Virus record (IMG/VR): IMGVR_UViG_3300044541_000063
Location: 1-64,000 of that record
DNA length: 64,000 bases
Reading direction: 5' to 3' (one strand)
Source of the DNA: a virus
Lineage: Duplodnaviria; Caudoviricetes
In this document: positions 42,811-46,712 of the stretch, in pieces
How positions within the stretch are numbered: position 1 is the stretch's first letter
How the letters are laid out: the number at the start of each line of letters is the position of its first letter
Made by a program: the position numbers and the translations under genes
Notes under the pieces: model-generated
The model's database searches: none
Told to the model about the DNA's origin: nothing
Seen by the model: the letters and a program-made list of their open reading frames with translations, nothing else

Positions 42811-44310
42811 GTGCTACTGACTTCGCACCACCGCTGCGTCCGGCCGCGCCTTGGGGTCGCGGTCTCAGACGCGGCGCGCGCGCGAACCGACCCGACGGGC
42901 ACTGCTCCTATCGCCTCCCGATGGGACGCAGAGTTCGCCAGGAGGTTCGCGCGCGTCAAGCGCGTGCTGCACGAGGTGATCGTGACACGCGACACGCTCG
43001 GAATAAGCGACGATCTCAAGAAGAGGGTAGACGCATCAGTCGGGGGAGCGACCAGGGCGCAGCGCGCGGCGCGCGCCCTGGACCTCGTTCGCTCGGCGGT
43101 GCACTCCGAGATTCTGGGCTCCCCCGGCTACGCCGACTCGTGGCAGAACAAGTTCGTCGCGATGGCCGTGACCAAGGGCGTCACCGACGCGTACCGGCGC
43201 ATGAAGCAGGCCGGCATGGACGTGACCCTGGAGCTCACGGTGGACGTCGGCATAGGCCAGTCGGCGCAGCGGCGCGCGGACTTCATCGCTCAGCAGAGCT
43301 ACGATCTGCTCGAGGGCATCGACGCCGACATGGCGGCGCAGATGCAGGACATCATTCAGCAGGGTCTCCTGGACGGCAAGAGTCCGCAGCAGATAGCGCG
43401 CGAGCTTGACCAGGAGCTGGACATCGGTCGCACGCGCGCGCGCACCATAGCGCGCACCGAGACCATCGGCGCTCACGCCGACGCAACGCTCGACTCGTAC
43501 GAGGAGGGCGGCATCGAGGGCGTTCAGGCCGAGGTGGAGTTCGCCACGGCCGGTGACGACAACGTCTGTCCGCAGTGTCAAGCGCTGGAGGGCAGTACCT
43601 ACACCATCGAGGACGCGCGCGACGTCATTCCAGTGCACCCGAACTGTCGGTGCGCTTGGTTGCCGGTGATCGCCAGCACCGCGGACGCAGTCACCATAGA
43701 CTACGACCCGAGCGAGCCGCGCGTGCCGGCCGGCAGTGCCGAGGGCGGCGAGTGGACCAGCGAGGGCGGTGCTGGCAGCGCGCCGGGAGTCGAGGGCAGC
43801 GGCGGCGACGCGTCTAAGCAGAGAGCGCTCGACGTGGCCAAGGAGCTCAAGTTCTCTCCCAAGAAGATGGAGTTCTCCGACGAGAACAAAAAGTTCTCAG
43901 TGGCCGGCAAGCGCATGACGAAGGGCGGCGAGTACGACCCGGCTACCGGGAAGGTGACGTTCTTCTCGCACAACGTGAGTCCGGAGGACGCCGAGCTGAT
44001 AGCGGCGCACGAGATCACCCACTCGATGTATCACGACTACTTCGGCTCCGAGGGATACCAGGAGCCGCTGATACATCTGTTCGGCAGCTACGCCACGTTC
44101 GCCAGGGAGGGCGGCGTCGACGAGTACAGCAATCAGTGGTGGAAGGCTGTCGGCGAGGGAAGGGCCAGACCTGAGCAGGCCATAAACGAGACGCTCGCGT
44201 CCATGGCCTCCATTCAGTACACCACCGGGAAGGTGGTCGGCGGCCCCGAGCATCAGGCGCTGCTCAAGAGAATACAGCGCTATCGCGGCGTGAGCGGGAC
44301 CAAGAAGTGA
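42811..44310 (+). CDS. MuF/SPP1-gp7-like minor head protein with C-terminal HExxH zincin domain
   Basis: DPTGT, RARTIARTET..AH, VCPQC, IPVHPNCRCAW; tag DYDPSEPR at 43699; AHEITH at 44008. Start uncertain. Confidence 0.88.
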   Translation: MLLTSHHRCVRPRLGVAVSDAARARTDPTGTAPIASRWDAEFARRFARVKRVLHEVIVTRDTLGISDDLKKRVDASVGGATRAQRAARALDLVRSAVHSEILGSPGYADSWQNKFVAMAVTKGVTDAYRRMKQAGMDVTLELTVDVGIGQSAQRRADFIAQQSYDLLEGIDADMAAQMQDIIQQGLLDGKSPQQIARELDQELDIGRTRARTIARTETIGAHADATLDSYEEGGIEGVQAEVEFATAGDDNVCPQCQALEGSTYTIEDARDVIPVHPNCRCAWLPVIASTADAVTIDYDPSEPRVPAGSAEGGEWTSEGGAGSAPGVEGSGGDASKQRALDVAKELKFSPKKMEFSDENKKFSVAGKRMTKGGEYDPATGKVTFFSHNVSPEDAELIAAHEITHSMYHDYFGSEGYQEPLIHLFGSYATFAREGGVDEYSNQWWKAVGEGRARPEQAINETLASMASIQYTTGKVVGGPEHQALLKRIQRYRGVSGTKK

Positions 44311-46712
44311 GTGTTCGTCGCACCAAGGTCAACGGCGAGAGCGTTCTGCTGGCGCAGGTCAGTCCGACTCTGTGGAAGGTCGTGTATCCAGACGGCCGCG
44401 CGGTGTTTCTGGTTCCTGAGGCGGAGGCGAACGATGGCATCAGCTGGCACGAGGAGGATCACCCGCGAGGCGAGGGCGGCAAGTTCGCCACCGTCGGGCA
44501 CGAGTCTCTTACTGGGCAGGAGCAGCAGAGTATCTACTACTACGCGCGACAGGCGTATCACGGACTGAACCGCAATCTTCGCCTCGGTCTGGGACTCAGC
44601 GAGCAGCAGGAAATTTGGAAGCGCGACCTCGACTCGGCGCTGGAGAAGTCGACGCTTGCGCAGGACATGACGGTCTATCGTGGCTTCGGCAACATGAAGC
44701 TCATCCGCGACATGAAGGAGGGAGACGTTCTCCGCAACGCCGCGTACACGTCGACTGCTCCAGACGCGAGGACCGCAACCTCGTTCAAGGACTTCAGCGA
44801 GGGTCTCCTGGAGATCTCGCTGCCGGCCGGCACCAGGGCGCTCGACGTGCATCGGGTCTCGAGCATGGAGCCGGAGATTCTGCTTCCTCGCGACACTTCG
44901 CTGAGGTACGTGGGCAGAGGTGAGCCGGCCGGTGTTGGCAGCGCGCCTGCGCGCACGTATAAGTTTGAGCTCGTGGCCAGCAGCGTCAGGGACTGGAGTC
45001 CCTTCCAGCCTCGCGTGCCGAAGGGTCAGTCTGGCGGCGGGCAGTGGTCCGGGGAGAACCTGACCAAGGCCGAGAGGGCCGAGGTGCGATACTACACTGG
45101 CGACGGGTTCGAGCACGTCAACTCGACGCTGCGGCAGGGCGAGGCCGGCATGCTCGACCGACTGCATCTGCTGGACAGCGCCGTGGCCAAGTCGGTCATA
45201 GACAAGAGCATCACGACGTATCGCGGCGTCAACAGCGCCGAGTTCACCGAGAAGCTCGACTCGCTGCAGCCGGGCGAGACCATCACCGACAGGGCGTTCA
45301 CGTCTACGTCGGGCAGCTTTCTGTCGGCGGCCATGTACGGTGGAGTAGGATCCCCGACCATGGAGATCAGGATTCCGTCTGGCAGCAGCGTGCTCTACGC
45401 CGAGAGCATGAGCGCCAACTCCGGAATAGGCGAGGAGGAGTACCTTCTGCCCCGCGACTCGACGTTCAGGTACGTCGGCTCGAGGACTGTGGGCGGCGGT
45501 GCCGGCGCCTCGAAGGGAAGCAAGGTCTACACGTTCGACCTAGTGCCGCGCGTTGTCAAGGACTACGACCCGAGCGAGCCGCGCGTACCGGCCGGGCAGC
45601 CGGGCGGCGGACAGTGGCAAGGCCAGAATCTGGGCGATGACGAGAAGAAGCAGGTTCGTTTCTACACGCGCAATGGATACACTCCGATTAATAAGTCCTT
45701 GCGCACTGGTACCGGGCCAGAATACCTGAAGGACGTCGTCGCGACGATAGACAGTGCCATCGCGAAGTCGGTGCTGTCGAGCGACACTGTCGTCTATCGT
45801 GGCGTTAACGCAGTGGGATTCGTTAGCGCTTTAGGTGCCCTCAAGCCGGGAGACACGATCACTGACTCAGCATACGTGTCGACTTCTGGTTCGTTGGCGT
45901 CCGCTGCGACGTTCGCAGGAACATACAACACGGTGATGGAGGTCAGGCTTCCGGCAGGCAGCAACGCACTCTATGTCGAGGAGTTCAGCGGAAGCAGTGG
46001 TCAGGAAGAAGATGAATATATTCTGCCGCGCGGCACTAAGTTTCAGTACGTTACCAGCAGGGTCACCAGGACGAAGAGGACTATCTACACGTTCGACCTC
46101 GTGCCGCGCGGCGCGGCCGACTGGAACCCATTCCAGCCGCGCGTTCCCGCGGGGCAGCACGGCGGCGGCGAGTGGACCGAGGGCACCAGCGGCACGGCAA
46201 CCGGATCTCTCGTCGGCGGCAATCCCAAGAAGGGCTTCGACCCGAAGCACGTCGACGCGCTCAAGCAGTACGCTGCCAGCATCTATCAGCCGGTGAACGA
46301 GGGTCTGCGCAACAAGACGAAGCTGCGGACCCAGGAGGAGCAGGTCGTTTTGGCACTCGACGAGGCGTTCGAGCGCAATCAGCGTACCACCGAGGTGATG
46401 CAGCTGTTTCGCGCGGCGGGCGAGGAGTTCGCGGCCTACGTGGACGCACTCAAGGTCGGCGACAACCTGATAGACGAGGGATTCGCGTCGACCACCACCG
46501 ACGAGAGACTGGCGCGCTCGTTCCTCAGCGGGCAGCCGGGCGAGAAGAAGGTGATGGTTGAGATCGTCCTTCCGAAGGACTCGAAGGCCATCGACACGTC
46601 GCCGTTCAATCCCTTCAAGGGAGAGAACGAGGTGCTGCTGCCGCGCAACACCACGTTCAAGTATCTCGGCATGGAGCGAGACGTGTATCGCTTCAGGGCC
46701 AATCCAAGGTAG
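44307..46712 (+). CDS. Polyprotein of four tandem R-S-E (VIP2/C3/Alt-like) ADP-ribosyltransferase domains
   Basis: VYRG/TST/EPE, TYRG/STS/EEE, VYRG/STS/EDE, LFRA/STT/ENE, each followed by (I/Y/V)(L/I)LPR; each domain preceded by a PR tag. Confidence 0.92.
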   Translation: MSVRRTKVNGESVLLAQVSPTLWKVVYPDGRAVFLVPEAEANDGISWHEEDHPRGEGGKFATVGHESLTGQEQQSIYYYARQAYHGLNRNLRLGLGLSEQQEIWKRDLDSALEKSTLAQDMTVYRGFGNMKLIRDMKEGDVLRNAAYTSTAPDARTATSFKDFSEGLLEISLPAGTRALDVHRVSSMEPEILLPRDTSLRYVGRGEPAGVGSAPARTYKFELVASSVRDWSPFQPRVPKGQSGGGQWSGENLTKAERAEVRYYTGDGFEHVNSTLRQGEAGMLDRLHLLDSAVAKSVIDKSITTYRGVNSAEFTEKLDSLQPGETITDRAFTSTSGSFLSAAMYGGVGSPTMEIRIPSGSSVLYAESMSANSGIGEEEYLLPRDSTFRYVGSRTVGGGAGASKGSKVYTFDLVPRVVKDYDPSEPRVPAGQPGGGQWQGQNLGDDEKKQVRFYTRNGYTPINKSLRTGTGPEYLKDVVATIDSAIAKSVLSSDTVVYRGVNAVGFVSALGALKPGDTITDSAYVSTSGSLASAATFAGTYNTVMEVRLPAGSNALYVEEFSGSSGQEEDEYILPRGTKFQYVTSRVTRTKRTIYTFDLVPRGAADWNPFQPRVPAGQHGGGEWTEGTSGTATGSLVGGNPKKGFDPKHVDALKQYAASIYQPVNEGLRNKTKLRTQEEQVVLALDEAFERNQRTTEVMQLFRAAGEEFAAYVDALKVGDNLIDEGFASTTTDERLARSFLSGQPGEKKVMVEIVLPKDSKAIDTSPFNPFKGENEVLLPRNTTFKYLGMERDVYRFRANPR

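Follow-up and report, generated by a model that had tools for sequence, protein, structure and literature searches.

The stretch of DNA analysed here, hereafter the window, comprises 64,000 nucleotides (nt) of a virus of the Caudoviricetes (positions 1 to 64,000 of IMG/VR record IMGVR_UViG_3300044541_000063), and it contains a gene whose product of 801 amino acids (aa), designated P0001, can be assigned by sequence and motif as a chain of four ADP-ribosyltransferase (ART) domains of the Arg-Ser-Glu (R-S-E) type, which belong to the C3/VIP2/Alt group and keep their catalytic motifs in all four repeats. The domains are joined by copies of a short conserved peptide (the tag), and the gene directly follows that of a MuF head morphogenesis protein. 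The explanation preferred here, with modest confidence, is that the four-ART protein is a 'multi-warhead' head cargo, i.e., a set of long-diverged, competent mono-ADP-ribosyltransferases connected by disordered conserved tags. The original prediction for this locus, a single 801-aa reading frame with four intact R-S-E ARTs, is borne out by matches in Pfam, PHROG and the PDB, and by AlphaFold2 modelling with Foldseek comparison for the first and the last domain.

The 801-aa protein as a whole matches PF03496 (ADPrib_exo_Tox) of Pfam in 4 stretches with an E value of 1.1e-84. When the protein was cut at the tags and the quarters were scanned singly, PF03496, which has a curated cut-off of 23.4 bits, was matched by domain 1 (D1) with 68.2 bits (E 7.7e-19), by D2 with 72.6 bits (E 3.6e-20), by D3 with 71.0 bits (E 1.1e-19), and by D4 with 69.6 bits (E 2.9e-19); the four single-domain matches are far above chance. 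D4 also matches PF01129 (E 8e-7), no Pfam domain other than ART was found within the 801 aa, and a six-frame search of the whole genome record returned exactly these four ART matches with no stop inside. In PHROG, the protein matches 'Alt-like RNA polymerase ADP-ribosyltransferase' (E 1e-29), and D4 corresponds to phrog_802 'Alt-like'. The parts of the protein, with the cassette types described further below, are the following:

44307..46712, + strand: four-ART protein P0001, 801 aa, GTG start, an open reading frame (ORF) without internal stops.
44310..44414, + strand: N-terminal mini-domain of ~36 aa with four predicted beta-strands (AlphaFold2 predicted local distance difference test score, pLDDT, ~88 for residues 1-36).
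44439..44486, + strand: short tag variant W-H-E-E-D-H-P-R-G-E-G-G-K-F, aa 45-60, accompanying the type-A cassette.
44499..44990, + strand: ART domain 1, type A, with R125, S149-T150-A151 and E188-P-E190, and the shortest ADP-ribosylating turn-turn (ARTT) loop.
44991..45047, + strand: tag 1, DWSPFQPRVPKGQSGGGQW, aa 229-247.
45048..45560, + strand: ART domain 2, type B, with R306, S333-T-S335 and E376-E-E378.
45561..45617, + strand: tag 2, DYDPSEPRVPAGQPGGGQW, aa 419-437.
45618..46118, + strand: ART domain 3, type C, with R498, S525-T-S527 and E568-D-E570.
46119..46175, + strand: tag 3, DWNPFQPRVPAGQHGGGEW, aa 605-623, followed by a Gly/Ser/Thr-rich linker to 46226.
46227..46709, + strand: ART domain 4, type D, with R702, S728-T-T730 and E773-N-E775.

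As had been predicted, the Arg motif (VYRG, aa 123-126; TYRG, 304-307; VYRG, 496-499; LFRA, 700-703) and the Glu-x-Glu motif (EPE, 188-190; EEE, 376-378; EDE, 568-570; ENE, 773-775) are present in all four repeats, and the tags between the domains are real. The S-T-S/T motif that had been ascribed to every repeat holds for D2 (STS, 333-335), D3 (STS, 525-527) and D4 (STT, 728-730), but D1 reads S-T-A (149-151). The domains are well diverged, with D2, D3 and D4 being 33%, 36% and 27% identical to D1, respectively; in their alignment the Arg, the Ser-Thr, the Glu-x-Glu and the subsequent L-P-R are invariant. When 38 cassettes from 8 proteins were aligned together with 7 single-domain relatives, the catalytic R, S and E were again among the invariant columns. 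A binary-toxin-like arrangement with a 'dead adaptor domain' was rejected, since all four copies keep the catalytic triad. That all four domains are active enzymes is rated as very probable.

Sequence searches of the PDB retrieved ExoT (6gnn, E 6e-8) for D1, the C3 structures 1r45 and 2bov for D2, Plx2A (5urp, E 1.7e-9), C3stau and VIP2 for D3, and C3larvin and ExoS for D4. AlphaFold2 models, based on alignments of 37-38 cassette sequences, were made of D1 with the N-terminus and of D4 with the preceding tag. The D1 model has a mean pLDDT of 83.2 with a core above 90 and disorder at residues 38-65, and its Foldseek matches are VIP2 (1qs2, E 6e-13), Plx2A, C3 and ExoS/T (probability 1.00). The D4 model has a mean pLDDT of 83.7 with most of the core above 90, and its matches are C3bot1 (2c8g, E 6e-12), Certhrax, ExoS and VIP2, all with probability 1.00. 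The tag is disordered in both models (pLDDT <50; residues 1-26 in the D4 model). Phage ARTs, fusions with MuF or portal, and Alt-like enzymes ('RNA polymerase ADP-ribosylases') are the nearest structures in BFVD. The original prediction had been staked on the ART fold, and the models of D1 and D4 match solved ARTs; both domains are accordingly modelled as adopting that fold.

Five close relatives of the four-ART protein, all metagenomic, were found in a large protein database, giving a family of six proteins. A whole-protein search of IMG/VR and 185,579 species genomes yielded no close relatives and no prophage copy that could reveal a host. The copy number among relatives, which the original prediction had proposed to compare, ranges from 2 to 4 cassettes in these five. 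P0002 (808 aa, four ARTs) has the same architecture and the same outer-membrane protein (OMP) and MuF neighbours as in the window; P0003 (611 aa) has three ARTs, on a contig that also encodes TerL, a 1493-aa portal-Acb1 protein, OMP and MuF. P0004 and P0005 (~1,000 aa) carry four ARTs fused straight onto MuF, and P0006 carries two ARTs fused to MuF; these direct fusions are encoded in the loci L011, L012 and L013. The N-terminal mini-domain is conserved in the unfused P0002 and P0003 and absent from the MuF-fused P0004-6, and it is possibly a docking piece. The 21 cassettes of the six proteins fall into five types, which vary in order and number between the relatives with breakpoints at the tags; cassettes are 47-99% identical between orthologues and 25-56% between paralogues:

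Type A: D1 of the window; accompanied by the short HPR..GKF tag in every case.
Type B: D2 of the window.
Type C: D3 of the window; sister of type B.
Type D: D4 of the window; present in all six proteins, always final, and the most conserved.
Type E: P0004 and P0005 only; Q-x-E replaces E-x-E.

In a tree that comprises 459 ART domains of 157 proteins (the sample is defined below), each cassette type forms a clade with support of 0.73-1.0. Types B and C are sisters (0.987), types D and E fall within one 29-leaf clade (0.92), and type A stands at a distance, beside domains of other proteins. Recent tandem amplification as the origin of the array is ruled out by this placement. Because B and C are sisters and A is far away in the tree, the array is better described as a mosaic that combines an old local duplication (B and C) with cassettes of separate ancestry. 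Type E is the first ART cassette of P0004 and P0005 (L011, 1155-1655; L012, 1279-1776), where it reads Q-K-E. The Q-x-E motif is a C3-like signature that is linked to asparagine rather than arginine modification, and on account of the Q-K-E motif the family may include a different acceptor chemistry.

The types differ in the ARTT loop, which precedes E-x-E, and in the phosphate-nicotinamide (PN) loop, which follows S-T-S; within a type both loops are conserved. The type A loop is 5-10 residues shorter than in the other types. In D4 the PN loop is extended by an insertion of 4 aa and the ARTT loop reads FNPFKG; the type D FNPFKG-ENE loop is identical in 4 of the 6 members, the other two having YNPFKG (one residue). 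In solved C3/iota-type enzymes the ARTT and PN loops contact the substrate. That these loops are type-specific and conserved among orthologues is the sole support for the proposal that the four domains have distinct host targets, to which an even chance may be given; the particular targets named in the original prediction (RNA polymerase, ribosome, defence proteins) are guesses that no finding supports. The cassettes are under purifying selection: pairwise ratios of nonsynonymous to synonymous substitution (dN/dS; NG86) between orthologous cassettes range from 0.05 to 0.76, lowest in type D and highest in type A, with synonymous sites near saturation in distant pairs, so that the values are reliable for close pairs only (0.05-0.45).

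The surroundings of the gene are those of a head module, in the order TerL, portal-Acb1, OMP, MuF, four-ART gene, several unknown genes, DUF2213 protein and PF09950 major capsid (Pfam, PHROG), and the gene order in the relatives L005 and L010 matches that of the window phage. Its main components are:

36401-37774: large terminase.
38248..41532, + strand: portal (PF06381) with an Acb1-like domain and two further tagged domains (Pfam, PHROG, tag search).
42030-42809: outer-membrane beta-barrel gene (OMP), PF13505, with a signal-peptide-like N-terminus, between portal and MuF.
42811..44310, + strand: MuF (SPP1 gp7-like) head morphogenesis protein, ~499 aa (PF04233, E 8e-16; phrog_758, E 3e-37), the start position being inferred from the relatives P0004 and P0006.
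52067..53869, + strand: DUF2213 protein, 'head maturation protease' in PHROGs (PF09979, E 2e-53; phrog_530, E 8e-91).

The MuF gene (42811-44310) and the array (44307-46712) are distinct overlapping ORFs in different frames, not one fusion, and the GTG start of the ART gene sits in a GTGA shared with the MuF stop codon. The identical GTGA overlap recurs in the relative L005 (63% identical), with a GGGAG ribosome-binding site ahead of it, which points to translational coupling of the four-ART gene to MuF. A -1 frameshift joining MuF to the array is unlikely, though the 44 preceding codons of the ART frame contain no stop, because the GTGA overlap, the GGGAG site of L005 and the N-terminal sequence from the GTG onwards are all conserved. 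The MuF protein itself carries a tag at 43699-43755, and its C-terminal 184 aa behind this tag (43756-44307) contain an HExxH motif (HEITH at 44008). The best Pfam match of this domain is a faint one to Peptidase_M78 (E 0.17), and Atlas gives the sub-threshold leads ATLF, M90 and LPD23 at 0.86-0.88; it may be a candidate zincin-like metallopeptidase of the polyvalent type, and is a lead rather than a finding.

According to the preferred explanation, the array would be synthesised late, translationally coupled to MuF, and would be recruited to the procapsid via the tags and/or the N-terminal beta mini-domain. It would then enter an alphaproteobacterial host along with the DNA, like T4 Alt, where each domain would transfer ADP-ribose from NAD+ to a separate set of host proteins, with arginine as the most likely acceptor because of the E-x-E motif, in the service of host takeover or counter-defence. 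Finally, cleavage at the tags or close to them, by the DUF2213 head protease or the MuF HExxH domain, may divide the array. The position in the head module beside MuF fits an Alt-like packaged enzyme. Packaging and injection are rated as probable, at a slightly higher level than the explanation as a whole; proteolytic separation of the domains is somewhat doubtful.

Several observations weigh against this explanation. The array and MuF have no covalent connection in the window phage, and the N-terminal 62 residues used as a query returned only the query itself, with no relatives outside the close family. Very large ART arrays occur elsewhere without the tag, which is therefore not needed for arrays generally. 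Type A of the window, compared with that of L005, has a dN/dS of 0.76, i.e., almost neutral evolution. Not all members of the superfamily obey the rule that E-x-E denotes arginine modification. Virion association, injection, activity, targets and cleavage are all read here from genes alone.

The missing covalent link to a structural protein is also what speaks for an unpackaged, late cytoplasmic enzyme set that would modify host or phage proteins in the producing cell, with its place in the head module being incidental; T4 ModA and ModB, the paralogues of Alt, provide the model, being ARTs that are not injected (PMC5512222). This is considered highly improbable, as the translational coupling to MuF is kept in relatives, the same cassettes are MuF-fused in three of them, the same tag is found on portal- and MuF-borne cargo, and two other ART arrays are situated between portal and protease or capsid genes.

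The MuF-ART fusions in close relatives raise a different alternative, in which the protein is a MuF-type polymorphic toxin of the Jamet/Bxa kind that inhibits non-immune bacteria, serving lysis-lysogeny or inter-strain competition, with immunity genes nearby. Bxa (PMC11699363) and the EFV toxin (PMC5576092) are precedents, and small unannotated ORFs follow the gene, namely 46886-47332 in the window, which is 3' of the four-ART gene and matches neither Pfam nor PHROG, and conserved 51-54 aa ORFs after the ART gene in relatives; such small downstream ORFs might encode immunity proteins of a non-enzymatic kind. Toxin-bearing MuF proteins are, however, essentially confined to temperate phages according to Jamet et al. 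(PMC5576092), and in the complete genome no match was found to tyrosine integrase PF00589, ADP-ribosylhydrolase PF03747 or Macro domain PF01661 (among recombinases, only the tyrosine type was looked for), which makes the phage probably virulent and devoid of recognisable enzymatic immunity. Moreover, the phage supplies replication functions of its own (thymidylate synthase, DNA polymerase A, two UvrD-type helicases and a primase-like protein with an AEP domain), the array is a separate gene in the window phage, and other tagged cargo (Acb1) resembles counter-defence, not a toxin. A toxin of this kind is thus regarded as improbable.

The tag motif is D-[WY]-x-P-x-x-P-R-[VA]-x-x-G-x-x-x-G-G-[QER]-[WF], and copies are located at the three ART cassette joints; the portal extension has two more, and MuF and the N-terminus of the DUF2213 protein have one each. 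The portal protein (1094 aa, PF06381 at residues 49-396) has an extension with an Acb1-like anti-CBASS domain (PF23474, residues 546-696, E 3e-19) and tags at 40363-40419 and 40921-40977, where the two tagged domains have no Pfam match; this extension is part of the same cargo system as the four-ART protein. The portal-Acb1 protein of the relative L010 has 1493 aa. In the DUF2213 protein, a candidate processing enzyme or scaffold, the tag occupies residues 18-31 (about 52097-52159), the DUF2213 domain spans residues 248-409, and the ~200 residues before that domain have no Pfam match. A literature search on the tag and on the cleavage specificity of DUF2213 found nothing.

An alternative that stays close to the preferred explanation holds that the effector is packaged and never cleaved: the array would be one multi-headed enzyme, and the tags would be no more than flexible linkers, loading labels that come with each cassette, and homology patches for cassette exchange, likened to the conserved motifs preceding the C-terminal domains of polymorphic toxins. 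The DNA of the tag copies is 62-76% identical over 68-92 nt, cassette order and number in the relatives differ with breaks at the tags, the tag opens stand-alone proteins that have no upstream partner to remove, and cargo of the N4 vRNAP type is injected as a very long chain (discussed in PMC5512222). Set against these are the two candidate processing enzymes in the head module, the DUF2213 'maturation protease' and the MuF HExxH domain, and the proposal that zincin-like peptidases process polyvalent proteins (PMC5512222). This alternative is seen as a serious yet rather unlikely one.

The distribution of the tag was determined by searching IMG/VR with a degenerate DNA pattern for P-R-V-P-x-G-x3-G-G-[QE]-W, which detected it in at least 120 DNA stretches. 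The counts that follow are among the matches listed. The consensus is K-Y-N-P-D-Q-P-R-V-P-A-G-N-P-D-G-G-Q-W-T, and because positions beyond the pattern are conserved (K-Y-N-P-D-Q before, T after), these tags are true copies of one motif. An ART is present in 3 of 158 tag-bearing ORFs, the median length behind the tag is 177 residues (about one domain), and for 30 of 161 tags the upstream stop is no more than 60 residues away, which places them at the N-terminus of stand-alone proteins. In ten random tag ORFs, the tag stands behind a portal domain or MuF wherever the upstream domain was recognised, and two of the ten are without any Pfam match. Recognisable cargo follows the tag in five, being CdiA-CT RNase A in four and ART in one; no head-protein domain was detected upstream of the tag in one of the four RNase A ORFs. 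The portals that bear the tag represent three families, PF04860 and PF06074 in IMG/VR and PF06381 in the window.

In the loci L018 and L025, the tag connects an HK97-type portal (PF04860) to a CdiA-CT RNase A toxin domain (PF18431); in L111 the tag and PF18431 occur in an ORF in which no portal domain was detected. As these three loci place PF18431 after the tag, the tag junction would deliver a nuclease toxin in other phages. In L067 (IMG/VR UViG 3300032053_001393), several ORFs of 160-240 aa, each starting with a PRxPxG..GG[QE][WF] tag, are found at 4100-7600 between a DUF4055 portal and MuF, which looks like a head module with its cargo encoded as separate tagged genes. Since the tag also opens stand-alone head-module proteins, it behaves, to judge by its distribution, as a portable N-terminal label of head cargo and not just as an inter-domain spacer. 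By analogy with the T4 capsid-targeting sequence it fits a loading signal, possibly with cleavage, and it would fit a cassette-exchange joint equally well.

The frequency of multi-ART proteins was approached by searching 1.84 billion cluster representatives with domain 3 alone, which gave 4,287 matches at E <= 1e-3. The best 150 of the 4,287, together with the family members, gave 157 proteins that were re-scanned with a hidden Markov model of the four window domains. Of these, 136 contained two or more full-length ART domains and 35 contained four or more, the maximum being ten; the ranking favours multi-copy proteins, so that these counts are not frequencies. PF03496 matched 9 stretches in P0012, 8 in P0020, 5 in P0017, 8 in P0018 and 9 in P0015, and Pfam found no unrelated family in them. 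P0012 (2201 aa, 86.8-kb contig) is encoded directly upstream of a Peptidase_S78_2 prohead protease and the capsid gene, and P0017 (1231 aa) immediately behind a PF06381 portal. A tblastn search with P0001 and P0012 of 50,697 GenBank phage records retrieved single-domain matches only and no array, and a literature search found no description of R-S-E ART arrays. The earlier judgement that a four-domain array is unusual thus stands for isolates, within the sensitivity of tblastn, but not for metagenomes, where arrays of 2-10 domains are frequent among the nearest relatives; moreover, a 12-copy array of a different ART clade has been published (PMC5512222). Head-module R-S-E ART arrays are a widespread class in metagenomes, i.e., in uncultured phages.

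A wider reading of these data is put forward tentatively, namely that the tag is a general portable signal for capsid loading and/or release in phages with at least three unrelated portal families, that the four-ART protein is a chain of individually addressed effectors with different host targets, and that R-S-E ART arrays of up to ten domains are a large undescribed class of injected payloads. If the tag is general in this sense, its cargo (ARTs, Acb1, CdiA-type RNases and unknown domains) may be fused to portal or MuF, chained, or encoded alone.

With 75,818 bp and direct terminal repeats, the IMG/VR source record represents a complete virus genome, and all large genes of the phage are on the + strand. 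The replication-type genes also include a radical-SAM protein, the radical SAM/SPASM protein (PF04055, PF13186) at 12349-13509. The OMP gene is kept at the equivalent position in the relatives L005 and L010; its cellular homologues, which are 25-32% identical and weak for host assignment, are from soil Alphaproteobacteria, Xanthobacteraceae and Bradyrhizobium. The major capsid protein shows no more than 50% identity with its counterparts in Rhizobium phages RHEph04-06, Aminobacter phage Erebus and others, and by these similarities the host is likely an alphaproteobacterium. An ORF of 557 aa at 48879-50552, Pro/Ala-rich and without Pfam or PHROG match, contains the motif L-S-P-G-I-P-G-Q-S-V-D-N-P-P five times; the first three copies are spaced by 111 nt (37 aa), and the remaining pair, also 111 nt apart, lies ~570 nt further downstream. 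It may be a component of the tail or of a fibre.

Head-packaged effectors decide the first minutes of an infection, and to our knowledge few of them have been studied experimentally, e.g., T4 Alt and N4 vRNAP. The present locus offers a compact set of four diverged Alt-like enzymes whose cassettes have been re-dealt in five relatives, and for that reason it is a natural system in which to ask whether paralogous ARTs of one phage strike different host proteins. In addition, head cargo in phages with different portal families is labelled by one short conserved peptide; should this be a signal for loading or cleavage, it could serve to bring chosen proteins into capsids in laboratory phage-bacterium systems and would aid the annotation of injected proteins in metagenomes. 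The concept is known and arrays are common in metagenomes, and it is the cassette system and the widespread tag that provide concrete, testable leads.

Among the known systems, the enzymatic components of binary toxins (VIP2, iota Ia, C2I, CDTa) provide the best structural and sequence matches, and duplication has given them tandem ART folds too. Their N-terminal copy of the fold is no longer catalytic and acts as an adaptor that binds the translocation component, whereas the copies in the window all keep R, S-T and E-x-E and are separated by disordered linkers instead of being packed together; no gene for a binary-toxin binding component was seen in the window. T4 Alt is carried in the head, undergoes processing by the head protease and is injected (PMC5512222, PMC9503650); this literature bears out what the original prediction stated on the injection of Alt and on the ART class. 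Alt/VIP2 ARTs are often fused to MuF (Iyer et al. 2022; PMC5512222, PMC9503650). The four-ART protein shares with Alt the R-S-E ART of the Alt/VIP2 clade and the encoding with morphogenesis genes. It differs in having four catalytic domains per chain instead of one, in the PRVPxG..GGQW tag as opposed to the T4 capsid-targeting sequence, and in a head lineage with PF06381 portal, DUF2213 and PF09950 capsid, a comparison made from genes alone.

Polyvalent proteins of phages and conjugative elements, of which one from a P. aeruginosa prophage has 12 copies of an H-Y-D-type ART (Iyer et al. 2017, PMC5512222), are predicted to be injected and proteolytically processed (PMC5512222). They resemble the present protein in having at least two effector domains in one polypeptide (four here) in a virion gene context (here from MuF to protease and capsid), and in the zincin-like HExxH domain, which here would be on the neighbouring MuF protein. 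Unlike the polyvalent proteins, which mix peptidase, methylase, helicase, LPDs and H-Y-D ART, the window array contains R-S-E ARTs only, is small (801 aa), and has cassettes bounded by a portable tag that is absent from the account in PMC5512222. The MuF-ART toxins (Bxa; EFV toxin of E. faecalis V583; PMC5576092) have an ART of the same superfamily on MuF in the head morphogenesis region. Bxa, from a Bacteroides prophage, ADP-ribosylates arginines, and both an ARH1 hydrolase and a binding protein neutralise it (PMC11699363); the E-x-E-type, arginine-directed chemistry is a further likeness, and the relatives P0004-6 are true MuF-ART fusions. These toxins have one toxin domain, temperate phages and adjacent immunity genes, whereas the window has four domains in a separate gene. 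The four-ART protein is therefore best filed as a variant of the known phage head-associated (polyvalent or MuF-linked) ART effectors and not as a new kind of system, distinguished by the exclusive use of R-S-E domains, by being unfused yet translationally coupled to MuF, by the beta mini-domain, and by tagged cassettes that are re-dealt among relatives.

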